From positions 25,202 to 89,201 of IMG/VR virus record IMGVR_UViG_3300005265_000549: DNA of 64,000 bases. The stretch is one strand, 5' to 3'. The stretch is from a virus. Under the pieces are notes generated by a model, which worked only from the letters and a program-made list of their open reading frames with translations, ran no database searches and was not told the origin of the DNA. Shown one piece after another: positions 1-63,355 of the stretch. Every line of letters begins with the position of its first letter. Within the stretch, counting starts at the first letter, position 1. Made by a program: the position numbers and the translations under genes.

Positions 1-2
1 AT

Positions 3-926
3 GCTAAAGAAAAAAATATGGAATGGCGTTGGATTAGTAAAATTAATGAAAAAAATATAATTTCAACTCTTTCAACTATTTGTCGAATTGCTTCACGTGG
101 ATGTACAATTACTGAAAAACATCAAAAATTTATTGAACAAAAATTTGAAGAATTAAAAAAAATCATTCCTGTAGAAACTTCTAAAACTGAAACAAATAAA
201 CCTAAATTTAATATTCAAGAAAGAATTTATGAACAAGCTGGTGAAGTTATGGCTGAAGTTCATGAATTTGTTGATGCTTTTGTAGAACAAGGAATTGAAA
301 ATAAAATTATTAATTCTTTAGATAAAAAAGGTTTTGGTCGTCCTCAAACAAAACATATTATTAACTTAATTGAACGTTATATTGAAGAATTTATTACTGT
401 TAAAAATGCGAAAGTTGATGATAAAGAATTATTTGAATCTTATAATTTAAGTATTCGAAAAATTAATTCAATTATAAAATATTTAGAAAGTTTAAAAGTT
501 GAATGTGAAAAATGGATTTTAGTTAAGAAAAAAATTAAAAAATTATCAGAAACAAAAATTAAGACTCCTTATGAATTATGTAAAAATGTAAAAATAAATA
601 AAAATACTGAAATTAAACCAGAAAAAGTTGTTGGAGCAATGGCAACTGTTCTTCAAAATACTCGTAATAAATCATTAATGTTTTTAGTTTATGAAGATAA
701 ATTTTTAAGCATTAAAGGAACCACTATTACTAATGTTGATTTAAATAAATCAACACGATATATAATTAAAAATAAGTTTAAAGAAAAAGCAATAAAAGAA
801 TTAAGAAAAATTAAAAATATTTCAAAGTTAAAAACATTTTTAAACAATGAAGAAAAATTCAAAAAATCAAAACAATCATGCACTGGACGATTGGGAGCTT
901 ATAGTAATATTATATTAGTGATTTAA
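3..926 (+). CDS. Conserved T4-like hypothetical protein (frame open to the window edge, possibly 5'-truncated)
   Basis: No stop upstream of ATG 18 in this frame. C-terminal KVVGA..VLQNTRNK....LSIKGTTI pattern resembles a conserved T4-like phage protein. Confidence 0.55.
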   Translation, partial: AKEKNMEWRWISKINEKNIISTLSTICRIASRGCTITEKHQKFIEQKFEELKKIIPVETSKTETNKPKFNIQERIYEQAGEVMAEVHEFVDAFVEQGIENKIINSLDKKGFGRPQTKHIINLIERYIEEFITVKNAKVDDKELFESYNLSIRKINSIIKYLESLKVECEKWILVKKKIKKLSETKIKTPYELCKNVKINKNTEIKPEKVVGAMATVLQNTRNKSLMFLVYEDKFLSIKGTTITNVDLNKSTRYIIKNKFKEKAIKELRKIKNISKLKTFLNNEEKFKKSKQSCTGRLGAYSNIILVI

Positions 927-997
927 TGACATAATTCTTCTCTTGATAAATATATTATATTTAATTATTATATATTTAAAGGAGAAGAATTATGTCA
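927..997 (+). promoter_or_regulatory. RBS-occluding hairpin with late promoter GATAAATA (945-952) in the loop
   Basis: tgacataattcttctc (927-942) is the exact reverse complement of gagaagaattatgtca (982-997), which spans most of the SD and the ATG of ORF 992. Confidence 0.85.
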
Positions 998-1861
998 ACA
1001 GATAATACCAATTTAGGTACATTAGAATCAGTAACAAGTGAGTTAACAGAATTAATTAAAGCAAATAGTATTGCTTATCAAGTTTGTGGTATTCAACAAA
1101 CAACCACTTCAACTCCAGTAGTTTTTGGAATTAAAAAAACATCTGGTACAACTGGATTTCAAATTGTTAAAAAAGATACAGTTAAAAAAGCGTCAACAAA
1201 TTCTGAAGGTTTTACAGATGAATTAATGGAAGATGTTTTTTCATTATTTGGAAAAAATGCTAAAGAATATTTAAAAATTATTTCAGCAAATGATTTAATT
1301 GATTCATTAGATGATGAAATAATTTCATATATGTCTAGTATAGCAACAGTAGAAAATGCAGTAACTTATGATTTTTCTACAACTACAGATCATAGACAAA
1401 TAATCCATAATTTACTTTTAAAAATAAATAAAACAAGAGTTAGTATGGCAAACGATTTAAAACGTGGTCTTCCAAAAATTTTAATCGTTTCAAGTGCTAT
1501 AGCAGCTTTATTAATCACAAATAAAATGATTAGTGGGAATGATTCTGATTTTGTTGCAGGTGGAGCAGAAAATGTTAAATTTGTTGGTAAGATGGGTGAT
1601 ATGCTTGTTTATCAAGATTTTGATGCAGCAGCAGATTATGTTTTAATTGCTCATAAATCATATATTCCTGGAGATGCAAGTATTATTTTAATTCCTATTA
1701 ATGAACCGGTTGCGAATATTAGAAGAGATGATGAAACTGGTCAACCTAAATATCATTATAGAATGAGACATGCTTATTCTAGAAATCCTGTTGATTCAGG
1801 TTCTTCTACTGCGGATTCAGATTTTATTAGAAAATTTGCTGTTACATTAACTGATTTCTAA
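992..1861 (+). CDS. Capsid protein paralog (gp23/gp24-like, HK97 fold; possible vertex protein)
   Basis: QVCGIQQTTTSTPVVFGIK, KRGLPKILIVSS, FVGKMGDMLVYQD, GDASIILIP and ETGQPKYHYRMRHAYSRNP match gp23-family motifs. Confidence 0.75.
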   Translation: MSTDNTNLGTLESVTSELTELIKANSIAYQVCGIQQTTTSTPVVFGIKKTSGTTGFQIVKKDTVKKASTNSEGFTDELMEDVFSLFGKNAKEYLKIISANDLIDSLDDEIISYMSSIATVENAVTYDFSTTTDHRQIIHNLLLKINKTRVSMANDLKRGLPKILIVSSAIAALLITNKMISGNDSDFVAGGAENVKFVGKMGDMLVYQDFDAAADYVLIAHKSYIPGDASIILIPINEPVANIRRDDETGQPKYHYRMRHAYSRNPVDSGSSTADSDFIRKFAVTLTDF

Positions 1862-1868
1862 AAATAAA

Positions 1869-1921
1869 AATCATGGTTTATTCTTCAAGATAAATATAAA
1901 CAAGGAGAATAAACCATGATT
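1869..1921 (+). promoter_or_regulatory. RBS-occluding hairpin with late promoter GATAAATA (1889-1896) in the loop
   Basis: aatcatggtttattct (1869-1884) is the reverse complement of agaataaaccatgatt (1906-1921). It covers the ATG of ORF 1916 and extends into the SD. Confidence 0.85.
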
Positions 1922-2287
1922 AAACAAACTAAAGAATTATATAAAAATATTCCCTATTGGGTAAAATTAGTTTCTTCAATTTTAGCTGTTACGATAACTT
2001 TAGGTGGAGCTGTTTTAGCAATGGAAGATCGTTATGTTTCTGAAAAAGAAGAAATTAAAACTCTTCAAATTTTTAATTCAAATATTCAACAAAATTTTAG
2101 ATTAATGAATTTAAAAATTTTTCAATTACAATATGATCATTTAACAGATTCTTATTATCAATATAAAAAATTAAGAAGAAACCAACCAAATGATATTGAA
2201 ATACAAGAAGAATTTGAAAGAATTAAAAATGAAAGAAAATTAATAAAAGAAAAAATAAATAAATTATTAGAAGAAAGAAATAAATGA
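1916..2287 (+). CDS. Membrane-anchored coiled-coil protein, function unknown
   Basis: N-terminal hydrophobic helix (WVKLVSSILAVTITLGGAVLAM) followed by a helical region. Good SD. Confidence 0.6.
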   Translation: MIKQTKELYKNIPYWVKLVSSILAVTITLGGAVLAMEDRYVSEKEEIKTLQIFNSNIQQNFRLMNLKIFQLQYDHLTDSYYQYKKLRRNQPNDIEIQEEFERIKNERKLIKEKINKLLEERNK

Positions 2288-3192
2288 AATCATTTTCTAC
2301 TGTATTTCAAGAAATGAAACAAACTAAAAGAGTTGGAATTCAACATCTAAATCAATTAAAACCATTAGATTTTATTAAATTAGTTAAATTAGTAAAAGAA
2401 GAAATGGGTGGTAAGATTTCTAAAACTAATTCTTCTGTATCCCTTAAAGTTGATGGTTTTGGATTAAGATTTGGATTAAATAACAAGGATGAATTTTTTA
2501 TTGAATCTTCTAATAGTGGCCCACAATTTAAAGTTGATGCTTTTTCAGAATACACAAAAAATAAAAAAGGTGAGGTTGATAAAATTTCAATTGCTTATGA
2601 TCAAGTATTTAAATCATTGAAATCAAATAAAAAACTTCAAAAGATTTTAAAAGAAAATAATACTGATTCAGGAATTAAAATTATTTGTGAATGTCTTTAC
2701 ACTCCAATAGGTAAAAAAGATAAAGATAAAATTAAGTTTGTTAGTATAAATTATGATCAAAAAAAATTAGGTGAAATAGCAACTTTTGTATTAATTAAAG
2801 TTATTGATGGTGATAATAATATCTTAGATCAGAACATTCTAGAATACGTCAAAGAGCTATCTAGTAAACAATTTTTATTCACAGATGCTACTGTTACTTT
2901 AGATGATATTGATTTAACTATTGAAATTGATAATGTATTAAAATTTGTTAAAAAATATCCTGATTTAGATAAGATAGTATTAAGTAGAAAAAAAGTTGAT
3001 AAAGAAATAAAAAATTTAATTAAAGATACATTGAAAAATTATCAAGAACAAATGAGTGATAAATTATTGAAATCAATAAAATCAACTAAATTTGGAGATG
3101 AATTTGAAGGAATAGTATTCAACTTATTAAAAGGAAAATCTTTTAAAGTAATTTCAAAATCTTTTAGTCAAGGTATTAAATTTAAACCATAA
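2284..3192 (+). CDS. ATP-dependent ligase-fold (RNA/DNA ligase-like) nucleotidyltransferase with capsid-targeting-like N-terminus
   Basis: Motif I SLKVDG, motif III ICE, motif IV EFEGIVF, motif V SFKVIS. N-terminus MKSFSTVFQE. Confidence 0.65.
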   Translation: MKSFSTVFQEMKQTKRVGIQHLNQLKPLDFIKLVKLVKEEMGGKISKTNSSVSLKVDGFGLRFGLNNKDEFFIESSNSGPQFKVDAFSEYTKNKKGEVDKISIAYDQVFKSLKSNKKLQKILKENNTDSGIKIICECLYTPIGKKDKDKIKFVSINYDQKKLGEIATFVLIKVIDGDNNILDQNILEYVKELSSKQFLFTDATVTLDDIDLTIEIDNVLKFVKKYPDLDKIVLSRKKVDKEIKNLIKDTLKNYQEQMSDKLLKSIKSTKFGDEFEGIVFNLLKGKSFKVISKSFSQGIKFKP

Positions 3193-3205
3193 ATAGGATT
3201 AATAA

Positions 3206-4153
3206 ATGATTAATTTTAAAACTTTTTTACTTGAAATAAAAATTGAAAAAGAAATTAATGATAAATTATTATCTATTATTAATCGACTTGGTTATAATGA
3301 TATCAAAACAAATTCAAAATTTTATTTTTCTATTTTGACAAATAAAAATCGTATAGAAGTAATGAAAGAACTTGAAAAGGAAATTCAAAAAGAAATTCCA
3401 GAAGCAAAATGGGATATTTCCAGTTCCGGTTCTTCTATAGGAAATATTGTTATAGGTAAATTTAAGTTGGGAGTCAAACCAAAATCTAGACAAGGAAAAT
3501 CATCATTTGGTTTAGAAAATGAAATGACATTATTTAATATTCTTGATGAAATATTAATTAATAAACCAATCAATATAATTTTTTCTACTGGTAAAAAAGA
3601 ATTTAAAATTGAAAATGCTGTAAGTTATAAAGATGTCGGAAATAATACAAAAAATAGAAAAAAAGCTGATATAATAATATTTGATGATAAAGGAAAAAAA
3701 TATTCTATTTCAATTAAGAAAGATAATGCTGAAAATTGGGAATCTGCTGATTCTTATTATGCTGATAAAGCAAAAAAAATAATAGATAAATTAATTTCTC
3801 AAGATAAAATTAAATTAGAGCCATATAGAAAAGGATTTAAATTAAATAAAAATATTGGAATTCTTGCAAATAAAAAAGAAATTAAAGATGTGGTTTTTGG
3901 AAGTGATATTTTAGGAAATGGTTGTGTAATTAAAAAAACATTTGATGGAAAATATGTGATAAAAGATGAAAATGTGATTATAAAAGTTTCTGAAATTATT
4001 ACAAACCTTTCTGAAATTCCAGAAAATGAAAAAGTATATTTTTTAATAAGAAATGATATCACAAGAAATAATCCTAAATTATATAAAGGAATTAGAATAT
4101 TAGCTGTTATGAAATCACGAATCAATAAATCAATTTTATTATATAAAGGATAA
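3206..4153 (+). CDS. PD-(D/E)XK restriction-endonuclease-fold protein with capsid-targeting-like N-terminus
   Basis: GLENE...KADIIIFD...ISIKKD pattern. N-terminus MINFKTFLLE. CATAAATA at 3188-3195. Confidence 0.55.
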   Translation: MINFKTFLLEIKIEKEINDKLLSIINRLGYNDIKTNSKFYFSILTNKNRIEVMKELEKEIQKEIPEAKWDISSSGSSIGNIVIGKFKLGVKPKSRQGKSSFGLENEMTLFNILDEILINKPINIIFSTGKKEFKIENAVSYKDVGNNTKNRKKADIIIFDDKGKKYSISIKKDNAENWESADSYYADKAKKIIDKLISQDKIKLEPYRKGFKLNKNIGILANKKEIKDVVFGSDILGNGCVIKKTFDGKYVIKDENVIIKVSEIITNLSEIPENEKVYFLIRNDITRNNPKLYKGIRILAVMKSRINKSILLYKG

Positions 4154-4186
4154 AAATGTTAAAAAAAACTTTTAAGGATTTTTATC

Positions 4187-4354
4187 ATGTTGAAAATCCT
4201 ACATCATTTATTAATTCAAGAATTAATTAAAATTTCATTTGAAAAAGAAAGTTATGATGTACTTTCTACTTTTTATAAGAAACATCCTTATTCGTTAATA
4301 ACTATTGATAAATATATTTCTAATATGTTAAATAAAAAAATAAGAAAAAAGTAA
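4187..4354 (+). CDS. Small hypothetical protein (55 aa, not in ORF track)
   Basis: AAGGA SD upstream of ATG 4187; frame open to TAA at 4352-4354. Confidence 0.3.
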   Translation: MLKILHHLLIQELIKISFEKESYDVLSTFYKKHPYSLITIDKYISNMLNKKIRKK

Positions 4355-4398
4355 AAAAACATTTTTTAAATTTTATAAAAAACAAAAAATAAAATGGA

Positions 4399-5532
4399 AT
4401 GATAATGGGTGGTAATATTAAATTAATAAAATTTAAATCTTTTTGTTTACAAGAAGGTGGAAATGTTCATGTGGGTGATGTATCAGCACAACAAATCACA
4501 TCTAAAGTGAATCGAACCAAATTAGTAAACGATTTAATTAAAAATCTTTTGATTTTAAATAATCAATTCCAAAAAGAATATGGATTGAAAATTTGGAAAA
4601 ATGAATCATATCTTAAATCAGGTGAAGTTTTTTCTGGTTCTTCAGAACATTTTATTAATTTAAATATTTCTGATGAAGAATATTTAAAACATAAACCAAA
4701 AACTGGTGATATTGATATACAAATAGATAAATCTTTAGAAACTAATTTACATGATTTTTTTAAAAAACATAATAAATTTGGAACTATGGAATATCTAGGT
4801 CAATCTCAAACAGCTATTGGACAAATTTCTTCTTTATTTAAAATTGATGGATATATGGAAAAATCTGAAAAGAAAAGAAGATTAGTTAAAAAGAAAATTC
4901 TGATCCAATTAGATTTTGAATTTGTAGATGTTGATGAAAAAGGTAAACCAACTGAATGGTCTAAATTTTCTAGATCATCTAATTGGAGTGATATTGAAAA
5001 TGGAATAAAAGGTGTTTTTCATAAATTTGCATTAGCAAATATCGATCATGTGTTTACTAAAAAAATTAAAATTAAAAAAGGTAAACGTAATCCAAAAATT
5101 ATAGAACAAGAAATTCATTTTTTTGCATTCTCAGTACAAAATGGATTAAGACCTAAATATCGTCCTGTTCCAAATGAAAAAGATGTATGGGAAGCAATAC
5201 CTTCTAAAGAAGGAAATTATACACAAGATATTTCACAAATTTTTGAAACTCTTTTTAGAAAAAAACCAGGAAAAACTGATCGGGATTTATTTAATTCATT
5301 TGTTGGTATTATTGAATTAGTTAAAAAATATTTTAATAAAAAACAACAACAAAAATTTGTTAATGCTTTTGTTGAGTTTATTTGGGGCAAAAATGCTCAA
5401 AAATTATATAGAGGTAACCCTCTACAAGATGCTGAAGTTAAAAATGCAGCAATGAATTATATTGAAAAAAAATTAAAAATTAAAAAGTCTAAATATGATT
5501 CTATTATAAATAATTATTATAAAAATTATTAA
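4399..5532 (+). CDS. DNA polymerase-beta superfamily nucleotidyltransferase
   Basis: FSGSS...TGDIDIQ...IQLDF catalytic signature. N-terminal KFKSFCLQE-GGN segment. Confidence 0.7.
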   Translation: MIMGGNIKLIKFKSFCLQEGGNVHVGDVSAQQITSKVNRTKLVNDLIKNLLILNNQFQKEYGLKIWKNESYLKSGEVFSGSSEHFINLNISDEEYLKHKPKTGDIDIQIDKSLETNLHDFFKKHNKFGTMEYLGQSQTAIGQISSLFKIDGYMEKSEKKRRLVKKKILIQLDFEFVDVDEKGKPTEWSKFSRSSNWSDIENGIKGVFHKFALANIDHVFTKKIKIKKGKRNPKIIEQEIHFFAFSVQNGLRPKYRPVPNEKDVWEAIPSKEGNYTQDISQIFETLFRKKPGKTDRDLFNSFVGIIELVKKYFNKKQQQKFVNAFVEFIWGKNAQKLYRGNPLQDAEVKNAAMNYIEKKLKIKKSKYDSIINNYYKNY

Positions 5533-5535
5533 GGT

Positions 5536-5889
5536 ATGAGAGAAGGAAAAACGATGGATAAATTTGAAACTTTCTTATTGGAAAAAACAATAAAATTTCC
5601 AACTGATGAATTTGATGAATATAAAAATAGAATTCCTGTTCCGGAAGATTTTAATATATTTATTAAATCTTGGTTAATAAAAAATTCAAATAGATTAAAA
5701 GATGAATTTATTATTCAAGCAATTGAAGATGTAGCTTTTAGTTTAAATAAAAAATATAGTTATATTCCAGGAATAAATTTTGAAGTTGCAGGAAAAAAAT
5801 TAAGTATTTATACTAAATCAGGTCAATTTGTTTTCACTTGTGATCAAAAAATAACGTTTAAAAAAATTAAAAAATTAATAGGAATTTAA
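5536..5889 (+). CDS. Hypothetical internal-head-like protein (likely start at Met7, MDKFETFLLE)
   Basis: Capsid-targeting-like motif. AAGGA SD precedes the second Met. Confidence 0.55.
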   Translation: MREGKTMDKFETFLLEKTIKFPTDEFDEYKNRIPVPEDFNIFIKSWLIKNSNRLKDEFIIQAIEDVAFSLNKKYSYIPGINFEVAGKKLSIYTKSGQFVFTCDQKITFKKIKKLIGI

Positions 5890-8800
5890 ATGAATAGTTT
5901 AAATAAATTATTTGAAAATAGTTTATATAGTAATGATCAAGAAAAATCTGATTTTGTTAATTCAGAAAAACTTGTTCATATTGCTTTTTGGATTGGTTTT
6001 TTAGGTCCTATTTTTCTTTATATTAATAGTGATAATCCAGTAATTAAAAAATATTTTAAAAGTGATAAAAAATTAAGAATAGATGCTATTACTGATGATA
6101 ATAATGATACTTCTTTAACTCTAAGTTTAATTAAAACATCTATACCTCCGGCTTTAGTTAATAAAATTACAAGATTTCTTGTAAGACTTAAATCTGGTCA
6201 AAAAATTGATGAAGATCTTTTTAAGAAAGAAATATTTGATCCATTATATAAAAAAACAATTAATTTAACTTTAAGTCCTCAAATTAAACGAACATTAAAA
6301 AGTTATTATAATGGTAATCTTTCAAGTTTAGATGTAGTAAAAACATTCATTATTAATGCTAGAAGATGGAAAATTTGTAATGAATTTAAATTTTTAGCTA
6401 GAAAATGTAAAATTAAAGGTGAAGTAAAAATTTCAAAAGATACTTCTAATGATTCGAATATAATTAAAAAAGATAATAAAGATGGTGCTTCTACTGATAC
6501 AACTGTGATTAAACCACCTATTCCTGCCTGGGAAAATTATCTTATTGATTTTGCTAGTAAAATTAATAATAAAGAAATTAGAGCAATTTTTGAAGAAGAT
6601 CTAATTTCTTACTTTAAAGGTGAAATGTATGGACAAACATATCGAAATATCACGTTTCGTAATATGGATGTTTTTTTTGATTTAGTTTTAAGTTTAGATA
6701 AAAATCAACTACCAGACGTTAAATTTAACATTAGATTAATGGAAATAAAATCATTTCATTTACCATTAATTTTATTATCTTTGAATCCAAAATTAACTGA
6801 TAAAATTAAACAAACATCTTTTAGTAATATTGAACATACTGGATTGGATTATTTCAATCCAATCTTTTATTTAATGTTTTTTTATAAATTTAGTTCAGCA
6901 AGAATTATAACTGAAAAATGTTTTGCTGAAATGTCTATTGATTTATATTATAATACAATAGTTAAAGAAATGGCTGCAAATTCAAAAGGAATAGAATTTT
7001 TTACAATAGATTGGATTGCTGATTTTTTCTTTAATAACTTATATAAATTGGAAGATAAAGATTATTTTGTTTCTTTAATTAAATTTTTAATTAATAATCT
7101 TACATCTAAAGAATTTATTATGCTTAAATCAAAAGTGAATGATAATTTAAAAAACCGTTTAATTAAATATGGACTCTATCATTTATTTGAAAAACTACCT
7201 ATTGATAAAATTAAAATGTATGATTTTCAACAATTTATAGAAACTATTATGTCATCATCTTATAGTATGAATAAAATTTTTGAAGATTATAGAAAAGAAT
7301 ATTTACCAGATAATTCTCTAGAAGAAATAAAAAAAATATTCTTAAATCAAGATTTTAATGATCTTGATTTCAGTCGATTGAATAATGCTTTATCTTATAT
7401 TTCTGTATATGATCCTATTTTTATTGAAAAATTATGTGAATTTTTTAATAATGAGAAAAAAATTGTAGATTTAATTGATAAAATGATTAAAAATTTTAAT
7501 AATAATGATAATTCTTTAAATCGTTTAAGATCTCATTTTATTATTTTATTTCCTAATTACTTTTCTGAAAAAGAAAGAAATGAAATTTTTGAAAAAAATA
7601 TCATTTCTTTAATAAATGTATTACAATATTGTCATGATAATAAATCATTATCAAATTTAGAAAATTGGAAATATGAATATTGTGAAAAAATAATTAATTA
7701 TTTAACAAATAATAATAAATTCGATAAGAAAGAAAATTCAATTATTTCAAATATTAATTTAAATTTATTCAAACTTTTTGGTGATGTCTGGGCTAAAAAA
7801 TTATTTTCTAAATTTAAAGATAATTTTCTAAAAAATTATTTTCTAATTTCTTCTATTTATTCTAAAAATAAATTAAAAATTGAAATTTTACGTTTTAGTA
7901 AAATTTTAGATAAAAATATTATTTTTAAAATAATTAGTGATAGTGATGATAATGATCAAAAAGAATTAACATTACAAAAAATTAATGAGTTATTTATAAC
8001 AATCGTTGATAAATTTGATAATTCAATAGATATAGAAAGTTTAGAAAAAATTATTGAAACATTAAATGAAAAATTAGAATTTTCTAGTGATATGAATCAA
8101 TATCAAAAAAAATTCATAACTATTGAATTGCTTACAAAAAATATAAAATATAAAAATAATAAAATAATTGAAAATTTTTATGTTAATTTATTTAAACAAA
8201 ATCCAGGATTTTTTTGTAAATTAAATTTAAAAAATTTAAAAGATTTAGAAGAAATAATTAAAAAACATCTTTCAAAAAAACAAATTGCAGAAATTTTTAA
8301 AAATAAAAGTACAGAAGATATTATAGGTGAAAGATTTAATATAAATAATATAAATTTTATAAATTTAATAGACGATAATGATAAAAAAATTGAATTTTTT
8401 AAAAAATATATTAATGAATATAAACGTCAAGTGAATTCTTCTTTAAAAAGAGGTGGAATTATTCCTAAAATTAATAATTTTGCTTTTGATTTATATCAAA
8501 AAGATCCAAAAATTATTGATAAATTATTTGATGAATTAGATCTTTCAACTAAAAATCAATTATTTGCTGAATTAAGAACTTTTGTTACTATAGCACCATT
8601 ATTAAGCAATATACATACTTCACCAGTTGTTCCATTAAAAAAATTAAAATCTGAAGATATTAGAAATGCTTTAAAATATAATAAATTTGAAATTGCAGAA
8701 GTTATAAAAGTTAGAAAAAGAAAAGGTGAAACATATTCTGAAACATTGAAAAGAACTATTAAAATTGCTGATGCTTCACAAAATAAAATTCCTAAACAAA

Positions 8801-9747
8801 AAGTTGAAGAAGTAGAATTAACTGAAAAAGAAATAGCTGAAAAAACTTATAATTTAAATAAAAAATATCATGCAGGAAAACATGGAAGTATTGGAATTCA
8901 ATTACTAAAAGAATTTAATGTATCATTACCTGAAGAAGAATGGAAAGCTTTTAGAGAAGAATGGAAAGATAAAGGTGATGGAATTTTATATCCTATGTTT
9001 CATGGAACAAATGGAACAGCTGCTTCAATGATTTTAAGATTTGGTTTTGCTATTTTATCTGTTAAAGAATTATCTTCAGCCGGTGGAAAATATGCTGGTA
9101 ATATGTTAGGTGCTGGTGTTTATACTGCTCCTAACATGGATAAAGTTGCTAATTATATTGGTGAACAAAATTATGGACAATTAGGTTCTATTGGATATTT
9201 ATTTGAAATTGATCAAACTTTAGGTGAAAAAAATAATCATTATCGAACAATGGGGCATGGTGGAGATAGAATTCGTTCACCTGAATATTGTTCTAAATAT
9301 CCTAGAAAACAATTAAAAATTGTAAAATGTTATAAAGCAGTAAAATCATCATTAAAACATATTTCAAAAACTGCTAGTAAAAATGGAGTAAAATTAGATG
9401 AAGCTTTTGAAAATCAAATACATAAAGGAATTTTAATGGAAAGTGATGAATTAGATATGATAATTGATGAAGGTTGGACTAATTTTATTTTTATGGATGG
9501 TTATATTCCTATTGGTAATAATGATGCTTTAAATTTCAGTTTTGTAACTTCTCAATTTTATGATGATATTCAAATTACACAAAATCAAGATGGTATAGTA
9601 TATTCAATAAAAAATGATATAGGTAATTTTGAAACTTTTAAAATTCCAGATACTTTTTTTGCTATTGAAGAAAAAGATCCTATTATATCAAAATTTTTAA
9701 ATATGACAAAAGATAAATTAATTATTGATAAAGAAGAAATAAAATGA
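5890..9747 (+). CDS. Large ADP-ribosyltransferase with C-terminal PARP-like (H-Y-E) domain; functional analogue of T4 Alt
   Basis: MFHGT...RFGF...GNMLGAGVYTA...VANY...SPEY motifs. Long helical N-terminal region. N-terminus MNSLNKLFE. Confidence 0.75.
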   Translation: MNSLNKLFENSLYSNDQEKSDFVNSEKLVHIAFWIGFLGPIFLYINSDNPVIKKYFKSDKKLRIDAITDDNNDTSLTLSLIKTSIPPALVNKITRFLVRLKSGQKIDEDLFKKEIFDPLYKKTINLTLSPQIKRTLKSYYNGNLSSLDVVKTFIINARRWKICNEFKFLARKCKIKGEVKISKDTSNDSNIIKKDNKDGASTDTTVIKPPIPAWENYLIDFASKINNKEIRAIFEEDLISYFKGEMYGQTYRNITFRNMDVFFDLVLSLDKNQLPDVKFNIRLMEIKSFHLPLILLSLNPKLTDKIKQTSFSNIEHTGLDYFNPIFYLMFFYKFSSARIITEKCFAEMSIDLYYNTIVKEMAANSKGIEFFTIDWIADFFFNNLYKLEDKDYFVSLIKFLINNLTSKEFIMLKSKVNDNLKNRLIKYGLYHLFEKLPIDKIKMYDFQQFIETIMSSSYSMNKIFEDYRKEYLPDNSLEEIKKIFLNQDFNDLDFSRLNNALSYISVYDPIFIEKLCEFFNNEKKIVDLIDKMIKNFNNNDNSLNRLRSHFIILFPNYFSEKERNEIFEKNIISLINVLQYCHDNKSLSNLENWKYEYCEKIINYLTNNNKFDKKENSIISNINLNLFKLFGDVWAKKLFSKFKDNFLKNYFLISSIYSKNKLKIEILRFSKILDKNIIFKIISDSDDNDQKELTLQKINELFITIVDKFDNSIDIESLEKIIETLNEKLEFSSDMNQYQKKFITIELLTKNIKYKNNKIIENFYVNLFKQNPGFFCKLNLKNLKDLEEIIKKHLSKKQIAEIFKNKSTEDIIGERFNINNINFINLIDDNDKKIEFFKKYINEYKRQVNSSLKRGGIIPKINNFAFDLYQKDPKIIDKLFDELDLSTKNQLFAELRTFVTIAPLLSNIHTSPVVPLKKLKSEDIRNALKYNKFEIAEVIKVRKRKGETYSETLKRTIKIADASQNKIPKQKVEEVELTEKEIAEKTYNLNKKYHAGKHGSIGIQLLKEFNVSLPEEEWKAFREEWKDKGDGILYPMFHGTNGTAASMILRFGFAILSVKELSSAGGKYAGNMLGAGVYTAPNMDKVANYIGEQNYGQLGSIGYLFEIDQTLGEKNNHYRTMGHGGDRIRSPEYCSKYPRKQLKIVKCYKAVKSSLKHISKTASKNGVKLDEAFENQIHKGILMESDELDMIIDEGWTNFIFMDGYIPIGNNDALNFSFVTSQFYDDIQITQNQDGIVYSIKNDIGNFETFKIPDTFFAIEEKDPIISKFLNMTKDKLIIDKEEIK

Positions 9748-10307
9748 TATCATTTAAAAAATATTTAGAAGAAGCACTTTCATTAGATAATGTAAATAAA
9801 ACACCTGGTAAAAATAAAGTTGTTGTAATGATGGGTCGTTTTCAACCACCGACTATCGCACATTTAGATATAATTGAAAAAGCATATAAAAAATATAAAC
9901 TTCCTGTTATTATTGCAATAGTAAAATCAAAAAATAAAAATTCACCTTTTTCAGTAGATATAATTAAAAAAATGATTAAAGAATCTATTAAAGGAAAAAT
10001 AGAATTTTTAGAACTTTCAAGTGGTTTTATTGGAGATTTTATTTCTCCATTAAGAGATAAAAATTTAGAACCAACAATTTTATTTGCTGGTTCTGATCGA
10101 ATAAAAAGTTATGAAAATCAAATTGAACGATATAAAGAATTATTTGATTTAAATTTAACAGTAGAAGAAATAAAACGAAATGATGATGATGTTTCAGCAT
10201 CAAAAGTCAGAGATGCTTTAAAGAATAATGATGAAGAAAGTTTTAAAAAATTAATGTCAAAAAATTTACATAAATATTTTAAAAAATTAAAAGGGATGAT
10301 GGTATGA
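9744..10307 (+). CDS. HIGH-superfamily nucleotidyltransferase (cytidylyltransferase / NMN adenylyltransferase-like)
   Basis: MGRFQPPTIAH, NSPFS, AGSDR and VSASKVRDAL motifs. N-terminus MISFKKYLEE. Confidence 0.8.
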   Translation: MISFKKYLEEALSLDNVNKTPGKNKVVVMMGRFQPPTIAHLDIIEKAYKKYKLPVIIAIVKSKNKNSPFSVDIIKKMIKESIKGKIEFLELSSGFIGDFISPLRDKNLEPTILFAGSDRIKSYENQIERYKELFDLNLTVEEIKRNDDDVSASKVRDALKNNDEESFKKLMSKNLHKYFKKLKGMMV

Positions 10308-10498
10308 AAACATATAAAGAGATTTTAAATGAAAGATTGGGAAAAGGTACTGGTAGAGAATTTGATGATGGTGAAGATACTTGTAAATGTCCTAAATGTG
10401 GATTTGAAACAGAACATAAAGCTGGAACTCCTTGTTTAGAAACAAAATGTCCTAAATGTGGAACAGCAATGAAAGGAAAAAGCAAAGTAAATGATTAA
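10304..10498 (+). CDS. Small Cys-rich zinc-ribbon protein
   Basis: CKCPKCG...HKAGTPC...CPKCG. N-terminus MKTYKEILNE. Confidence 0.7.
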   Translation: MKTYKEILNERLGKGTGREFDDGEDTCKCPKCGFETEHKAGTPCLETKCPKCGTAMKGKSKVND

Positions 10499-10823
10499 TT
10501 ATAAAGAAATTCTAGAAGCAAAAAAGAAAACTGCAAGAGAATTGAAAAAAATTTTAGAAAGTTCTGATTTTGGTTATACAGAAGCTGGTGGAAATGGTCG
10601 ATGTAAAATTAAAGGTAAAAACCTTATTGTTTATAATTCTTATTGGGCAGGGAGCCAAAGACATCTTGATAATTTAATCAAATCTTGGTCTCCAAAAGGA
10701 TCAAATTATGAATATTTTAAAGAAGAAGGTTTTGATATAAAAATAATTAATTCTGGTTCTGAACCTAAAAGTAAAATTTATAAAGGTGAACCATCTGTTT
10801 GGGTTGAATTATCTGTAACTTGA
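10491..10823 (+). CDS. Hypothetical internal-head-like protein
   Basis: N-terminus MINYKEILE; overlaps the previous gene. Confidence 0.55.
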   Translation: MINYKEILEAKKKTARELKKILESSDFGYTEAGGNGRCKIKGKNLIVYNSYWAGSQRHLDNLIKSWSPKGSNYEYFKEEGFDIKIINSGSEPKSKIYKGEPSVWVELSVT

Positions 10824-10879
10824 TAAAAATATCACTACTTTTTAAAAAAATCAAATGAATTACTTTTTTCTATTTTTTT

Positions 10880-10948
10880 ATTAATAAAATTAAATACTTA
10901 CAATACACTTTTTTCAAAAAAAGTAAAAACATACCAAGGTGTATGTTA
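10880..10948. repeat. Dispersed intergenic repeat, copy 1
   Basis: attaataaaattaaatacttacaatac(a/g)cttttttcaaaaa...caaggtgtatgtta is shared with 33617-33671. Confidence 0.85.
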
Positions 10949-10982
10949 GATTTCTATAAATTTTAAATTAAAAGACTTTTTT

Positions 10983-11798
10983 ATGAAAAACTTTAAAGAT
11001 TACATTAGGTTACACGAATCATTAATTACTTTTGGTGGAAAGACTTTTCCAAAATTTAATAATATAGTAATTATTGCTGGTGGTCCCGCATCCGGAAAGA
11101 GTTTTATTAGAAAATATTTATTAGGTTTATCTGGAAAAATATTTGATGTTGATCAATTAAAAGATTTAACATTATTAACTATCGAATTAAAAAATAAAAT
11201 TAAAGAAAAGTTTGCTATTGATTTAGATAATTTTGATTTTAATGATGCTGAAAAAGTTTCTGAATTACATTCAATTTTGAGGGGAATGAAAATTCAAGAT
11301 AAAAAAATTAAAACTTTTCTTTTGAATACAGTAGGTAATAAAAATAAACCTAATATAATTTTTGATTTAACTTTAGATTCTTTATATTCATTAAATACTA
11401 TTACTAAATTAGTCATTCCTTATGGTTATGATAAAAAAAATATTCATATTGTTTGGGTTGTTAAAGAAATAAAAGAAGCTATTAAATTAAATAAAACAAG
11501 AGAAAGAAATATAGATCCAGATATTTTAATTAATAAACATGAAAATGTTGCTAATACATTCAAAAATATTTTATCAAATAAATCTAGATTTCAAAAATGG
11601 GTTGATGGTGATATTTGGGTTGTTTTTAATAAAACTGATGTTGATACTATTTTAAAAAATTCTGGAAATGGTGGTAGTTATATTGAAAAAGCATTAACAA
11701 TAAAAATTAAAGAACAGGGTAAAAAAATTAAAGATAGAAAAAGTATGGATAAAGATTTTTTACATAAATTATCTAAATATACTAAAAGACATTTTTAA
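10983..11798 (+). CDS. P-loop kinase (zeta-toxin / polynucleotide-kinase-like)
   Basis: Walker A AGGPASGKS, DVD, IIFD and lid motif NKTRERNI. N-terminus MKNFKDYIRLHE. Confidence 0.7.
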   Translation: MKNFKDYIRLHESLITFGGKTFPKFNNIVIIAGGPASGKSFIRKYLLGLSGKIFDVDQLKDLTLLTIELKNKIKEKFAIDLDNFDFNDAEKVSELHSILRGMKIQDKKIKTFLLNTVGNKNKPNIIFDLTLDSLYSLNTITKLVIPYGYDKKNIHIVWVVKEIKEAIKLNKTRERNIDPDILINKHENVANTFKNILSNKSRFQKWVDGDIWVVFNKTDVDTILKNSGNGGSYIEKALTIKIKEQGKKIKDRKSMDKDFLHKLSKYTKRHF

Positions 11799-16607: not shown

Positions 16608-17051
16608 ATGAAAACGTATAAAGAACAAATGGAAGCTGAAATATTAGAACAAGAAAATGTTGATGATGAACTTTATGATAAAATTTTAGATTTTTTAATT
16701 AGTTTAGATCCTGATGTTTTACCAGAAGATCAGGCTGATCTTCTTCATGAAATCTTAGATGAATTATTTGATGATTTTGATGATCTTTATGATGATGATG
16801 ATGTTGGCGATGGCGATGAAATTGAAGGTGAAACTATTACAACTGAAGCTTTTGCTGCAAAGAAAAAAAGAATTTCACCCGCTGAAAAAAATAAACGTAA
16901 AAGATTATATCGTAAAAATAAATCAAAAATTAAGATGAAAGCTAAAAAACGTAGAAAGACAGCTTCTTTCAAACGTTATAAAAAGAAAGCAAAAAGAATG
17001 GCTAAAAAAGGTAAGACTGCTTCAGGTAAACGTCGTACTAAATTTATCTAA
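16608..17051 (+). CDS. Prohead core / internal DNA-binding protein (acidic N-half, Lys/Arg-rich C-half; gp68-like)
   Basis: N-terminus MKTYKEQMEAE, strongly bipartite charge, GATAAATA at 16430-16437. Confidence 0.55.
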   Translation: MKTYKEQMEAEILEQENVDDELYDKILDFLISLDPDVLPEDQADLLHEILDELFDDFDDLYDDDDVGDGDEIEGETITTEAFAAKKKRISPAEKNKRKRLYRKNKSKIKMKAKKRRKTASFKRYKKKAKRMAKKGKTASGKRRTKFI

Positions 17052-27677: not shown

Positions 27678-27920
27678 TTATAATGATTCTTTCAAACCTT
27701 TATTTAATGTTCTCAATAGTTCTTTAACCATTTTTTTATTTTCTAATAATTTTTTAGAAAACATCAATGGATAAAAACCTTTACCATCTAATTTATATGT
27801 GACAGTGATATAATCATTTTTATCTGGTTTTGACATTCCAGTATATTCTAAAATTTCACCAGATTGAGTTGTTGTTGTTTCTTCATTTAATTCATTGAAT
27901 ATTTCATTAAAAGATTTCAT
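27678..27920 (-). CDS. Small protein with capsid-targeting-like N-terminus
   Basis: N-terminus MKSFNEIFNELNEE; AAGGA SD. Confidence 0.55.
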   Translation of the reverse strand: MKSFNEIFNELNEETTTTQSGEILEYTGMSKPDKNDYITVTYKLDGKGFYPLMFSKKLLENKKMVKELLRTLNKGLKESL

Positions 27921-28449: not shown

Positions 28450-30174
28450 TTATGAATTATATTTAAATATAAAATTTCCACAATCCCATATTCTATCATA
28501 TCCATTTTGTTGCATATTTTCCCATTCAGTTAAATTTACATCAAAATTTTCTGATTTATTTTTCAATTTATGTTTCATATAATTAGCTCTATGTTCTAAT
28601 TCTATATAATTTTTAGTATACCAATAATTAGGAAGACTTTCATGTGAATATTTAAATCCTAATTTATAATACAATTTTCCTATGCTAAATCTTTTATCTG
28701 CATAGGTAATAATTTCTTGATTTTTCCAGAAATTATTTAAAAAATGTTTAAACAATCTAGAAGCAGAACCTATTACATTAGTATTTATCAAATTACAAAA
28801 TCTTATTAATTCAAAAGAAGTTTTTCCTGTAATTCGTCTACTACCAAAAGTCATCAAAGAAACTAATTTATTATCATAATATAAACCTAGTCTAATACTA
28901 GAATTATCTTTTCCTTGAAGATGATTATTATTTAGAAAATCATTTTTTTCTTTTCTTTTTACTTCTTTAATAATACATTTTCTTGCATAAATTTTATTAG
29001 GTGTTTTTCCTAATTTATTTTTAATAATAGATTTAATTATATCTTGTTTATTATTCCATTCAGAATCAAAGATATGAATTAAATCTATTCCTAATTGTTC
29101 TTTTGCTTGTTCAGTTTTCCATAGGTGGTAATTTCTATCTTTACTACCTGATAATTCTGTGTGATAATAAATACCATCACACTCAATTCCTAAATTATAA
29201 GAAGGAATTAATATATCTATTTCTAAATTACCTTTATTTCCAGATTGTGTGAAATCTTTAATAGGTTTTGTATTATTAATTGTTTCTATATTTAATGAAT
29301 GAATAAAAAAACAAACTTCTTCTTCAAAATTAGATTTAGTAAAACATTTTGGACATGAAAAATTTTTTCTATTACTTATATAATTTAATCTAAATATATT
29401 ACCACATTTATTATGTTTTATATTAAAATATCCTGTATTAACATATTCTTCTTTATTTGTTAATACTTTAAATATTTTTTTTTCTTCTATATCATTTTTA
29501 TAATTTTTATAATTATTATTTCTATCTTTAATTCGTTTTATATTTTCTTTATTAATTGTACCACATGATTTAGAACAAACACCCGAATATCCATTTTTTA
29601 ATCCATTAAAATTTTGATTTTTAATTCCACAGACTTTACATTTAGGTATTTCTTTCAAATCATTTATTATAATATAACACTTTTCAATTAATGTATTTCC
29701 TGGATATTCATAAATTGCTCTTAAAAGATTTGGATTTTTTTTAAATAAAGAATATTTTAAATTAGGAATATCTAAAAGTAGTAAAATTTCTTGAACTTTC
29801 AATTTTATATTTTTAATTTCTGAGTATTTTATTTCAAATATTTCTTTATCTGATACTACATTATTGGGCTTATGACCTTTTATTCTAAATCCTTTATATT
29901 TATTATCTTTACCAGTGCATTTTCTTGAACAATAAATAGCATATCCAAGTCTTTTATTTCCACCAAAAGAAACTTTTTTTCTACAAACTTTACATCTTGG
30001 AATTTCAGTAATATTAAAAAAATAATTATAACATTGTTGACTTATAGAAATATCACCAAAATTATATTGTGTATTATATAATTTAATCTTTTCATATATT
30101 TTTAAAGAACGAATTATTTTTGAAAATTGTCTTGGTTTTTCAAATCTTAATTTTAAATATTCTTGTTTTGTCAT
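28450..30174 (-). mobile_element. Free-standing Hef-like homing endonuclease (Zn-ribbon repeats + PD-(D/E)XK + GNAT-like C-terminal domain)
   Basis: Repeated PRCKVC...YCS..C units; EIDI.IP...GIECDGIYYH, HIFDSEW, IYARKC, NHLQG, ELIRFC, YADKRFS and RIWDCG. Inserted between sheath and tube genes. Confidence 0.8.
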
Positions 30175-45480: not shown

Positions 45481-46368
45481 TCAACCAGCGCCTGAATTCA
45501 CACCATCTTGAACCATTTTATGCGAATATGTTCCATATTTTGATTTATCGGATACTACTGAATGAGTTGCATATGTAGAATTACAATTCCAACTCCATCC
45601 GGTTTCATCACCATCCTCAAATCCTGGATTTGTTGCTACTTTATTATCACTTCCAATAGTAGTAAATGAATTTGACCATTTACATTTTTCTAATTGCCAT
45701 TCTGAAATTGTTATTGAACCAGTAGCATCAGTAGCATCATTAAAATAAGCAAGTAAAGCAATACTTACTGTGTCATCATATACATTGAAACTATTATATT
45801 CAAATCTTTCTAAATAATCTTCAGAAGCATCTGCTTTTAAAATTGATTTTGTTAAATATCCTGCTGAAGATCCTTCAGAGTTAATAAATCTAATTGCAAA
45901 AGTAATTTTAGTAGCATCAGCAGGCCAACTATTAACTTTATATTTTCCAGAAAATGAAATTAATTCACCTGGTACTAATTCATTAGATAAATATCCAGAA
46001 ACTGATGTTGATAAATAATACCAATCATCAATAGAAGAAAAAGTTGCTGAACCATCACCATTTAAGGTAATATAATTAGAACGCCAACCAGTACCTGCTG
46101 AAAAATCAACTGAAAAATCAGCAACTAATTTATTACAATGTGATTCTTCAACTGCTACCGCTCCACCAAATTTTCCATCATCTCTAAGAGTAGTCACAGA
46201 ACCAGAAAGTGGTTCTGTTAAACCATCAGTTGATTTTAAATCAACATCAAATCTAAATAATTTAGGTTGTACTGTATCTGATTTTATATTTGCTGAAAAC
46301 AAATATGTTGCTACATCAGGATATTGACCATTATCTGGATATAAAGAATTTTTTGGATATAGACTCAT
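45481..46368 (-). CDS. Giant fibre/spike protein, N-terminal segment, ending at an in-frame TGA
   Basis: MSLYPKNSLYPDNGQYP, FRFD and DGKFGGAVAVEE. The CBM-like NPGFEDG domain is cut mid-domain by TGA. GATAAATA at 46405-46412. Confidence 0.8.
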   Translation of the reverse strand: MSLYPKNSLYPDNGQYPDVATYLFSANIKSDTVQPKLFRFDVDLKSTDGLTEPLSGSVTTLRDDGKFGGAVAVEESHCNKLVADFSVDFSAGTGWRSNYITLNGDGSATFSSIDDWYYLSTSVSGYLSNELVPGELISFSGKYKVNSWPADATKITFAIRFINSEGSSAGYLTKSILKADASEDYLERFEYNSFNVYDDTVSIALLAYFNDATDATGSITISEWQLEKCKWSNSFTTIGSDNKVATNPGFEDGDETGWSWNCNSTYATHSVVSDKSKYGTYSHKMVQDGVNSGAG

Positions 46369-53221: not shown

Positions 53222-53734
53222 TTAAAATTCTAAGATTATTGATACTTTTTCTTTTTGACTGATACTTCTGTGTGTAACTAATCTATTATCTATATAATGT
53301 AAAACACCTTGACTATGAAGATCACCAACATCATATTCTTGTTCTGTACAATCAGTTTCTATATCAACATTCATCCAAGTTGGATTTTCTAAAAGCCCTA
53401 TAGCTCTAAATGAAATCAAAGGATAATTATCATAATCTAAAAGAACATCTAAATATAAATTGATAATATTTTCTGTAAAAATATTTTCTTCAGCAACTTC
53501 TAACCAATTTGTATCTCTATAAACAATAGAACCACCAGGATCAGGTTTTACATATTTGATGTTTTCAACTCTAGCAATAAAATTTAATTCATCTAATAAA
53601 GTATCAGAAGGATCTGGTGCATCAGGAATATTTTCATTTGACCAAGCAGATGTTTGTCCAAAACCAATATAAAGATTTTTTTGTGCTAAATCATATGTTC
53701 TTTGTGTTCTACTGTTTAAAGTAATAACAGCCAT
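53222..53734 (-). CDS. Baseplate wedge protein (gp8-like)
   Basis: YIGFGQTSAW..E..P, FRAIGLL.NP and G.L.YIDNR...R...QKE...I.EF. Confidence 0.7.
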   Translation of the reverse strand: MAVITLNSRTQRTYDLAQKNLYIGFGQTSAWSNENIPDAPDPSDTLLDELNFIARVENIKYVKPDPGGSIVYRDTNWLEVAEENIFTENIINLYLDVLLDYDNYPLISFRAIGLLENPTWMNVDIETDCTEQEYDVGDLHSQGVLHYIDNRLVTHRSISQKEKVSIILEF

Positions 53735-62692: not shown

Positions 62693-63355
62693 TTATGATG
62701 GAACATCACTTTGACTAGCTCGATATAATTCTTTAAAATCTATTGACATTTTTACAGAAAGAGGATGTCCTGTTTTATACATTCTTAGAACACCATCTGG
62801 AGTATAATTAACAGTAAAATTTGTAATCACACAATCTTGAATATAAATTCCCATTGGATTTTGACTAACAGGAAATAAATTCCACATGGCTGGATAATGA
62901 ATTAATTGTCCTGTGTATGTGGGTAAAGATTCTTTTCTAATTTTAGAAATAATCTTTGATAATATAGTTGCTTCTTCTTCACTAGATGGTATTAAATCCC
63001 AAGAAAAAGAATAAGTTCTAAAATTAGATCCATTATATGATAATGAAGCATAATCATTAATAAATTCTCCTTTTATTAAATGTTTTAGTGGTGTACCACC
63101 ACTTTCAATCATTTTTTTACCAAATCCAGCTTTTGCACCTTCTTTGAAAGATATTAAACCTTCAGTTTCATCCCAATTAGAACCTTCAGTTAGATTTAAC
63201 CCTTCTGAAGGAGTCGGAAGAATTATTTTTACTGAATCTGGAATTTTATTAATTTTTTGATAAAATCTATGTGATTTTAATGTAATTCTATAACTAATAG
63301 GAATCATCAAAAAAGAATCACCTTTGTTTGAAATATCTTTTGGAAATTGTAACAT
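62693..63355 (-). CDS. Baseplate tail-tube cap (gp48-like)
   Basis: LQFP.D, LP.P, FRTYSFSW.L.P.S.EEA, CVIT...VNYTP.G and F.EL. Confidence 0.8.
   Translation of the reverse strand: MLQFPKDISNKGDSFLMIPISYRITLKSHRFYQKINKIPDSVKIILPTPSEGLNLTEGSNWDETEGLISFKEGAKAGFGKKMIESGGTPLKHLIKGEFINDYASLSYNGSNFRTYSFSWDLIPSSEEEATILSKIISKIRKESLPTYTGQLIHYPAMWNLFPVSQNPMGIYIQDCVITNFTVNYTPDGVLRMYKTGHPLSVKMSIDFKELYRASQSDVPS

Follow-up and report, generated by a model that had tools for sequence, protein, structure and literature searches.

Capsid-targeting-type leaders on a block of unrelated enzymes point to probable head-packaged cargo in a T4-like phage

Introduction

Why do unrelated proteins encoded side by side in a phage share the same kind of short N-terminus? 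The question is raised by a block of genes at positions 2284-11798 of a 64,000-nucleotide stretch of viral DNA, hereafter the window, which corresponds to bases 25202-89201 of the 89,201-bp IMG/VR viral contig IMGVR_UViG_3300005265_000549 (counts given for the contig use the whole 89 kb). An original prediction had proposed that these N-termini are variants of the capsid-targeting sequence (CTS) of the T4 internal proteins (IPs), and that a battery of nucleotide-transfer enzymes is packaged in the head and delivered together, a composition for which no characterized system was known. Highly diverse CTS-tagged internal proteins have already been described in T-even phages (PMC3012670, PMC9026906). 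Here, we analyze the block, its homologues and its genomic context, and we consider it probable that the block encodes head cargo of a T4-like phage, CTS-tagged, trimmed and delivered with the DNA.

Results

A T4-type leader on nine of ten consecutive genes

Nine of the ten consecutive genes at 2284-11798 carry a leader of the form M-x-x-(F/Y)-x-x-hydrophobic-(L/I)-x-E (Table 1), and all nine N-termini quoted in the original prediction are present where it had placed them. The first ATG is the start of the leader in seven of the nine, and the leaders of genes 2284, 3206, 5890, 9744, 10304, 10491 and 10983 (the latter reading MKNFKDYIRLHE) open at the annotated starts. In gene 5536, the leader opens at the second Met, and 5554 is likely the true start; that of gene 4399 lies inside the protein (MIMGGNIK-LIKFKSFCLQE, then GGN), and no usable start codon stands ahead of it. 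Position 4 is F or Y and position 7 is I, F, Y or V in eight of the nine leaders, gene 5890 having L at both, and the P3 residue of the predicted junction is L or I in eight of nine, with F in 2284. The conserved leader positions are 4 and 7 (aromatic/hydrophobic) together with 8 and 10 (L/I and E). In the T4 CTS, positions 4 and 7 are needed for targeting, and positions 8 and 10 for processing (Mullaney and Black, as summarised in PMC9026906). The leader of gene 10304 is the closest to the T4 CTS, MKTYQEFIAE, with a BLOSUM62 score of 28. In the AF2 models of genes 2284 and 4399, the leaders are disordered ahead of well-folded domains.

A shared N-terminus could also be no signal at all and result from AT-rich codon use, a translation-start preference or the common descent of 5' ends: at such a low GC content the residues K, N, I, F, Y and E abound, many proteins begin with MK-, and a few tail genes match looser patterns. 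The expectation for the motif was derived from internal positions of the same 127 contig ORFs. The strict motif (M-x-x-[FY]-x-x-hydrophobic ... hydrophobic-x-E) is found at 10 N-termini, versus 0.6 expected. A second scoring by ungapped BLOSUM62 comparison with the T4 CTS (threshold of at least 10), whose reference is independent of this genome, retrieves 13 N-termini versus 1.5 expected. The leader matches cluster, as 7 of the 10 block genes have one, compared with 9 of the 117 other genes (Fisher p = 1e-5). None of the ~60 early-type genes upstream of the window has the full motif, and the start of gp32, MNFKDFKK, does not align in register and has no hydrophobic-x-E end. An equal frequency of the motif among early non-virion genes, which the original prediction had said would count against it, is thus not observed. 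The two outliers that it had listed outside the block are also real, one in gene 16608 (MKTYKEQMEAE) and the other in the minus-strand gene at 27678-27920 (MKSFNEIFNELNE).

The leader is a modular add-on in several protein families

The nucleotidyltransferase (NTase) encoded by gene 4399 belongs to a family large enough to compare proteins with and without a leader. A full HMMER search with this protein returned 622 representative relatives, and N-termini were read for the best 150 of them, at most 50% identical to each other. Within these 150, 58 start with M-GGN, and 74 carry a leader of 5-24 residues ending in E directly before the invariant GGN. Leu occupies P3 in 48 of these leaders, Ile in 25 and Met in one, that is, L or I in 73/74 for a background L+I frequency of 15% (binomial ~5e-59). 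Because only the Glu served as selection criterion, the agreement of P3 with the (L/I)-x-E rule of T4 gp21 is independent of the selection. By the methionine aminopeptidase rule, Met before Gly is removed, so that leaderless and leader-bearing NTases would give the same mature GGN end. In gene 4399 itself (window 4399-4458), the first GGN, after MIM, looks like the N-terminus of a leaderless protein of this family (such as P0083, MIM/GGN; slashes mark the leader junction); the arrangement resembles a recombination scar, and the leader may have been inserted by recombination.

Comparable leaders are found in other families of the block. Members of the ligase-like family (gene 2284) have either an M-x-x-F-x-x-(F/Y)-(L/I)-x-E leader or a start at the conserved T-K-R-V-G-I-Q-H-L core. 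In the kinase family (gene 10983), a leader of 11-12 residues ending in L-x-E is kept in Aeromonas phage 65 (MKKFSEFIKLEE), Klebsiella phage Fraggle (MKSFKDFTSLDE) and Cronobacter phage S13 (MNFKEFCQLDE), and NATAAATA lies just upstream of the gene in Fraggle and S13, in the latter directly after a terminator-like hairpin. Homologues of the giant ADP-ribosyltransferase (ART) of gene 5890, i.e. the metagenomic P0002 and P0003, Marzo gp073 and Aeh1 ORF131c, have 5-9 N-terminal residues ending in (L/I)-x-E before a conserved body that opens with NS(L/F)Y in all homologues but Aeh1; in Stenotrophomonas phage Marzo, GATAAATA stands right after the terminator ahead of gp073. A comparison of leader status between the ligase and the NTase of one genome, made to see whether the two are correlated, rests on the 8 unique pairs that passed filtering, with a leader on both proteins in 4, on one in 3 and on neither in 1, a sample too small to reveal a correlation.

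The upstream motifs of two NTase genes also differ. The leaderless gene of Vibrio phage pv27 (L102:2498-3652) has small early-type genes as neighbors and a TATAAT-like box ahead of it. In the CP220-group Campylobacter phages, the 4399 homologue starts MKLSELMFILE/GGN, and in CP220 itself (gp100, L101:2336-3502) the late-type AATAAATA is found upstream, as in the group. Early transcription and virion packaging are suggested as alternative delivery routes for this NTase.

These comparisons bear directly on whether the shared N-terminus is a by-product of composition. In G004, a complete relative of 170.7 kb and 35% GC, five strict leaders are found versus 0.8 expected genome-wide, all of them at 116-134 kb; because leaders are present at such a GC content, the signal is not a by-product of extreme AT content. 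The leader is also found in homologues from cultured enterobacterial, Aeromonas and Stenotrophomonas phages, P3 is kept in leaders that otherwise differ freely, and the first residues of leaderless homologues coincide with the junction. We thus rejected a compositional artefact, as well as paralogy of the whole proteins, whose folds are unrelated, and regard the absence of any signal as highly improbable. The core of the original prediction, T4-type targeting and cleavage leaders on unrelated enzymes, gains from both the modularity of the leader in three enzyme families and the P3 rule.

The module recurs, with a gp21-type protease in relatives and a homologue in virions

Conservation of the gene neighborhood, put forward earlier as a check, was found across related loci. 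A relative of the ligase-like protein is encoded at 80 IMG/VR loci, and an NTase gene lies within 10 kb in 54 of them, usually adjacent. Three loci (L007-L009) repeat the window order of ligase, NTase, small ORF, giant ART and HIGH-motif NTase, with leaders on the ligase (MKSFKRYLTE), the NTase (MISFKKFIAE/GGN) and the HIGH NTase (MKSFSQFINE), and the propeptide MRNKTYKELHE/NLLY on the giant ART. The related-locus search with the gp23-like protein encoded ahead of the block gave no relatives.

Peptidase_S77, the gp21-type prohead protease family, is encoded in 4/4 complete related genomes carrying leader-bearing homologues. In addition, gene 1-56 of the T4-like Campylobacter phage vB_CcoM-IBB_35 (HM246720 39251-40417), the orthologue of CP220 gp100, is 30% identical to 4399 (BLASTP 2e-35). 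The mass-spectrometric proteome of purified IBB_35 virions lists this protein at 17% coverage, above the portal protein (PMC3322345, Table S2); the authors annotated it as a hypothetical protein, with no fold, leader or processing noted. Like that of 4399, its leader ends directly before the GGN (I-L-E/GGN), but it belongs to an MKLSEL type and not to the M-x-x-F one. These data show that the virions of a T4-like phage contain a leader-bearing member of the NTase family, and together with the protease in complete relatives they give further backing to the core of the original prediction. As for other proteomes, the Klebsiella Jiaodavirus paper concerns an Alt-type ART, without mention of the kinase family, and the pf16 paper contains no proteome or ART text.

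The leader might instead direct the proteins elsewhere than to the capsid, for instance to a membrane, another assembly, or degradation or activation, with a Glu-specific protease of the host or the phage, other than gp21, cutting it. Targeting is indeed deduced from likeness to T4 alone, and the contig carries no gene for the protease. Such a destination nevertheless fits poorly with a T4-like phage whose leader junctions obey the gp21 rule, whose complete relatives have gp21, and whose block follows a head gene, one homologue being found in virions. A signal peptide was rejected, as the leader has no signal-peptide-like hydrophobic core. We consider a destination other than the capsid very unlikely.

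Predicted activities of the leader-bearing proteins

The original prediction had named a ligase-fold NTase, a nuclease, a Pol-beta NTase, a PARP-like ART, a HIGH NTase, a zinc ribbon and a P-loop kinase. In the 38-sequence family of the ligase-like protein 2284 (~300 aa), K55-x-D-G (K55, D57, G58), E275-G-x-V (E275, G276, V278) and K288 are invariant, and PF09414 RNA_ligase is recorded on several homologues. Its AF2 model (mean pLDDT 90, residues 1-8 disordered) has as best Foldseek matches the Naegleria nick-sealing RNA ligase (NgrRnl) and T4 Rnl2 (E 2e-6, probability 1.0, TM ~0.4). The presence of motifs I, IV and V and of the adenylyltransferase fold supports the ligase-fold call and places 2284 in the ATP-dependent RNA/DNA ligase superfamily, with a putative activity. 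A tblastn search of 2284 against cultured phages gave no match.

In the NTase 4399, the invariant residues are G20-G21-N22, G80-S81, D104-x-D106 and D172. By Foldseek, the AF2 model (mean pLDDT 93, residues 1-15 disordered) resembles Pol lambda/beta in palm and thumb (E 6e-3, probability 0.99-1.0). VIA-align, which is independent of Foldseek, gives Z scores of 5-7.3, with top rows that are nearly all Pol-beta-fold NTases and matches including cGLR and TUTases. The hG[GS] and DxD motifs, the third carboxylate and the predicted palm fold support membership of the Pol-beta superfamily, as originally called, and the modest structural scores indicate a divergent member.

For the 1285-aa protein 5890, the single-sequence Pfam PARP match is sub-threshold (E 4e-4, below the gathering score). 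A profile of four homologues matches the catalytic domains of PARP1/2 and tankyrase (E 2.6e-6) with H-G and G-x-G-x-Y aligned, and the motifs FHGT, GVY (G-x-G-x-Y) and LFEID are visible. This profile match sustains the PARP-like call and supports a predicted H-Y-E ART domain at the C-terminus. Because the domain aligns to H-Y-E PARPs, 5890 resembles Alt in no more than its propeptide and the delivery predicted for it, and the T4 Alt/VIP2 (R-S-E) family was discarded on the same ground. The homology search with the full protein found only two relatives (P0002, P0003). One internal CTS-like stretch, KIEFFKKYINE (aa 834-844, window 8389-8421), lies upstream of the ART domain. The closest homologue, P0002, does not share it, so that we make no polyprotein claim for the giant ART; in P0003, comparable internal motifs occur at other places. 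Separately, two giant-ART homologues were observed to have another residue in place of the predicted catalytic Glu, Ala in L007 (15710-16369) and Leu in P0002, His and Tyr being kept. Loss of the catalytic Glu in PARPs goes with mono-ADP-ribosylation.

Pfam CTP_transf_like matches 9744 above cut-off (E 2.7e-8, domain from residue 29), in line with the HIGH NTase call; the (T/H)xGH motif reads T-I-A-H, and the nearest solved relatives are phosphopantetheine adenylyltransferases, aligned from query residue 25-28. The other calls stand in part. That 3206 belongs to phrog_12709 is clear, and its nearest named Atlas clusters are restriction endonucleases (0.87-0.89), which makes a nuclease fold a lead only; its homologue KVP40.0017 aligns from residue 43 only and is without the first 42 residues and the leader. 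The zinc ribbon of 10304 has its two CxxC pairs, all Pfam zinc-ribbon matches being sub-threshold. For 10983, membership of phrog_5268 and a P-loop are seen, and the zeta-toxin match is weak, so that the kinase fold is likewise a lead; homologues from this family occur in 215 cultured T4-like phage records. Proteins 5554 and 10491 have no match in Pfam and PHROG, and phmmer searches of PDB sequences with 2284, 4399, the ART region and the kinase gave no useful match. Outside the block, 16608, whose leader is almost perfectly T4-like and for which tblastn found no homologue in cultured phages, is a candidate DNA-binding or DNA-condensing internal protein, judging by its composition.

Operon-like context and source phage

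The block genes lie behind a gp23-family head gene, and several are preceded by a (G/C)ATAAATA-type motif, as originally noted. NATAAATA is enriched on the contig, being found at most 50 nt upstream of 16/127 genes versus 3.8 expected, with six of these in the stretch from the gp23-family gene through the block. The variants there are GATAAATA for 992 and 1916, CATAAATA for 3206 and 10304, and AATAAATA for 2284; TATAAATA sits 31 nt before 5536. On the minus strand, GATAAATA precedes the gp18 sheath gene and the tail/baseplate genes at 45481-46368, 53222-53734 and 62693-63355. Start and stop codons overlap as in an operon at 2284/2287, 9744/9747, 10304/10307 and 10491/10498. These upstream motifs fit a T4-type late promoter and, as evidence from motifs only, suggest late co-transcription with the head gene. 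The block proteins are also basic, with pI >8 in 10/10, >8.9 in nine and a median of 9.5; the other 117 proteins have a median pI of 6.4, and only 30% of them are above 8.8.

The contig is ~48% complete (CheckV) and has a GC content of 22-24%, with values of 20-32% along it and ~22% around the tagged block. Its gene content identifies the source virus as a T4-like myovirus: it encodes a gp16-type small terminase, a gp15 tail sheath stabiliser, a gp17 large terminase, a baseplate hub and tail tube proteins of the gp19 and gp48/54 types, with the sheath protein and gp32 assigned from position and size. Upstream of the window, the early-type region also holds an NAD-dependent-ligase-sized gene and a nicotinamide-phosphoribosyltransferase-sized gene. 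Two neighboring genes were noted besides. A 574-aa HNH homing endonuclease (window 28450-30174, minus strand; phrog_3339, E 5e-108) lies between the sheath and tail tube genes. A 361-aa phrog_11903 protein (window 1-926, starting 159 nt upstream of the window) directly precedes the gp23-like gene, and its N-terminus, MAKKFVRKYLKQKASEIIE, is loosely leader-like, with I-I-E at residues 17-19.

Table 1. Features of the leader-bearing block and related genes (window positions; leaders and activities are predicted).
Position	Strand	Feature	Leader
945-952	+	Late-promoter-like motif GATAAATA, 47 nt before gene 992	
992-1861	+	289-aa gp23-family head protein paralogue heading the putative operon; Pfam Gp23 PF07068 E 3.7e-23; phrog_138 major head protein	
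1889-1896		Further GATAAATA copy, 27 nt before gene 1916	
1916-2287	+	123-aa protein, one predicted membrane helix; stop overlaps start of 2284	none
2284-3192	+	RNA-ligase-like covalent nucleotidyltransferase	MKSFSTVFQE
3206-4153	+	phrog_12709 protein (E 1e-51), possibly PD-(D/E)xK nuclease	MINFKTFLLE
4307-4314		Further GATAAATA copy, 92 nt before gene 4399	
4399-5532	+	Pol-beta-superfamily nucleotidyltransferase	internal, residues 9-19; predicted mature N-terminus GGN
5554-5889	+	111-aa protein; ORF opens at 5536	MDKFETFLLE
5890-9747	+	1285-aa protein, C-terminal PARP-like (H-Y-E) ART domain at ~aa 1000-1130	Alt-like propeptide MNSLNKLFE/NSLY
9744-10307	+	HIGH-motif cytidylyltransferase-like NTase	MISFKKYLEE, then 13-residue linker
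10304-10498	+	64-aa protein, two CxxC pairs (zinc ribbon)	MKTYKEILNE
10491-10823	+	110-aa basic protein	MINYKEILE
10983-11798	+	P-loop, zeta-toxin-like kinase-fold protein; phrog_5268 (E 5e-74, full length)	MKNFKDYIRLHE
16608-17051	+	147-aa protein outside the block, acidic middle and very basic Lys/Arg-rich tail	MKTYKEQMEAE
27678-27920	-	80-aa protein between tail-tube-like genes	MKSFNEIFNE(LNE)

Discussion

How would such a block work? In the scheme that we find probable, its genes would be expressed late, co-transcribed with the gp23-family head gene, and the N-terminal leader of 9-12 residues, a T4-type CTS, would bind each protein to the prohead scaffolding core. A gp21-type prohead protease would then cut after the Glu of the terminal (L/I/F)-x-E, freeing the basic mature protein to lie with the packaged DNA. 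When the next cell is infected, the cargo would exit the head with the DNA, and would thus be inside that cell before phage gene expression begins. It would comprise a ligase-like adenylyltransferase, a possible nuclease, a Pol-beta-fold NTase, a giant PARP-like ART processed like T4 Alt, a HIGH NTase, a zinc ribbon, a kinase-like protein and two proteins of no assigned family.

The last step could have a different outcome. If the leader were simply a removable propeptide, the cargo could stay and act in the head, on the packaged DNA or in head maturation, instead of being injected. All the evidence for targeting and cleavage fits this equally well, and T4 retains some processed core fragments in its head (PMC9026906). 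Against it, the model cargo, the T4 IPs and Alt, are ejected (PMC3012670, PMC9026906), and leaderless family members exist; because the leaderless pv27 NTase gene sits among early-type genes, these enzymes seem to be wanted early in the cytoplasm. We regard retention in the head as unlikely.

Several points weigh against packaged and injected cargo. We infer packaging, cleavage and injection in this phage by analogy with T4 and from comparative evidence. The portal, protease and scaffold genes (gp20/21/22 head module) and the major capsid gene are absent from the 48%-complete contig, on which the Peptidase_S77 search also gave no match, so that the phage's own gp21-type protease is an assumption. 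The IBB_35 proteome speaks to presence in virions only, neither to processing nor to ejection. Some leaders depart from the 10-residue model, with the E at position 12 in 10983 and at position 9 in 5890 and 10491, a Phe at P3 in 2284, and eight extra residues ahead of the leader in 4399. The tail-region genes 33810 and 48188 also have motif-bearing N-termini, which means that the regular expression for the leader is not fully specific. Finally, NATAAATA is short and the genome AT-rich, and the association of the late motif with leader status across related loci (8/34 versus 0/8) is not significant.

The concept of tagged head cargo is a known one. The block resembles the T4 IPs in its ~10-residue leaders with an aromatic residue at position 4, hydrophobic ones at 7 and 8 and Glu at 10, in its basic unrelated cargo and in its T4-like host genome. 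It differs in that the IPs are small and non-enzymatic (IPI inhibits a restriction enzyme), whereas the block cargo consists mostly of enzymes of 187-1285 aa; moreover, the block would form one operon behind a head gene, its leaders vary from 9 to 12 residues and one of them is internal, and it is known at the gene level only. Like T4 Alt, 5890 is a large ART with a very short propeptide ending in (L/I)-x-E, a predicted head delivery and homologues in other T4-like phages; unlike Alt, which belongs to the R-S-E clade, it is of the H-Y-E type, about twice as long and without detectable sequence similarity.

Iyer, Aravind and colleagues have predicted head-packaged and injected ARTs (including PARP-type), Nudix, Macro and other enzymes, and polyvalent proteins, from gene neighborhood or linkage to head genes and from fusion to MuF or portal domains (PMC5512222, PMC9503650). 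In the passages of these papers that were consulted, a leader or propeptide is not used as evidence, the word 'propeptide' occurring 0 times. The block shares with the polyvalent proteins and head-packaged NAD/ADP-ribose enzymes described there the combination of disparate activities (ARTs, Pol-beta NTases, nucleases) proposed to be injected at the start of infection. Their domains are fused in one polypeptide or to MuF/portal domains, whereas the block has separate genes with their own putatively cleavable tags. The block hence falls outside the polyvalent protein class, with its 2-15 effector domains per polypeptide, and the likeness is functional only. Of the original statement that no characterized system has this composition, the part on the enzyme set stands, and the part on the concept does not, given the T-even CTS proteins, Alt and these published predictions. 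What is new is the set of enzymes, each encoded by a tagged gene of its own, the alternation of leader-bearing and leaderless proteins whose mature N-terminus stays invariant, the L/I-x-E statistics in three or four families, and the link of a leader-bearing family to an existing virion proteome.

As to function, the likeliest role of the ligase, the NTase, the kinase-like protein and the possible nuclease would be to heal and seal the ends of broken RNA or DNA. Such a kit could act on RNA, for instance on tRNAs cut by host nucleases, or equally on the incoming DNA. T4 uses Pnk and Rnl1 to repair cut tRNAs. By analogy with Alt, host macromolecules are the probable targets of the PARP-like ART at the time of entry. 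The roles named in the original prediction, RNA/tRNA repair, NAD handling and counter-defence, are putative. Since the HIGH NTase gene overlaps the ART stop codon and follows the ART in L007, the two proteins may work together; the HIGH NTase perhaps acts on a nucleotide cofactor, a role as nicotinamide mononucleotide adenylyltransferase (NMNAT) not being established.

A broader proposal, to which we give slightly less than even credence as a whole, is that uncultured T4-like phages share a widespread virion-delivered module for end processing and ADP-ribosylation, made of an RNA-ligase-like enzyme, a Pol-beta-fold NTase, often a HIGH NTase, and a giant PARP-like ART. Its families would switch between two delivery modes, either a leaderless gene expressed early or a tagged gene expressed late whose product is packed, trimmed by the head protease and injected, both yielding the same mature N-terminus (e.g. 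GGN). Since homologues exist in cultured phages, standard virion proteomics would suffice to check the prediction. A leader ending in (L/I)-x-E before a conserved mature N-terminus would also provide a simple, testable sequence rule by which injected effectors could be recognized in metagenomes. Should the tags act as they do in T4, pre-made enzymes, including a ligase, a polymerase-like transferase, a kinase-like protein and a PARP-like ART, and not DNA alone would take part in the first minutes of infection for many environmental T4-like phages, which, if true, bears on how these phages survive defences that act before phage gene expression, whether RNA- or DNA-cutting or NAD-consuming.

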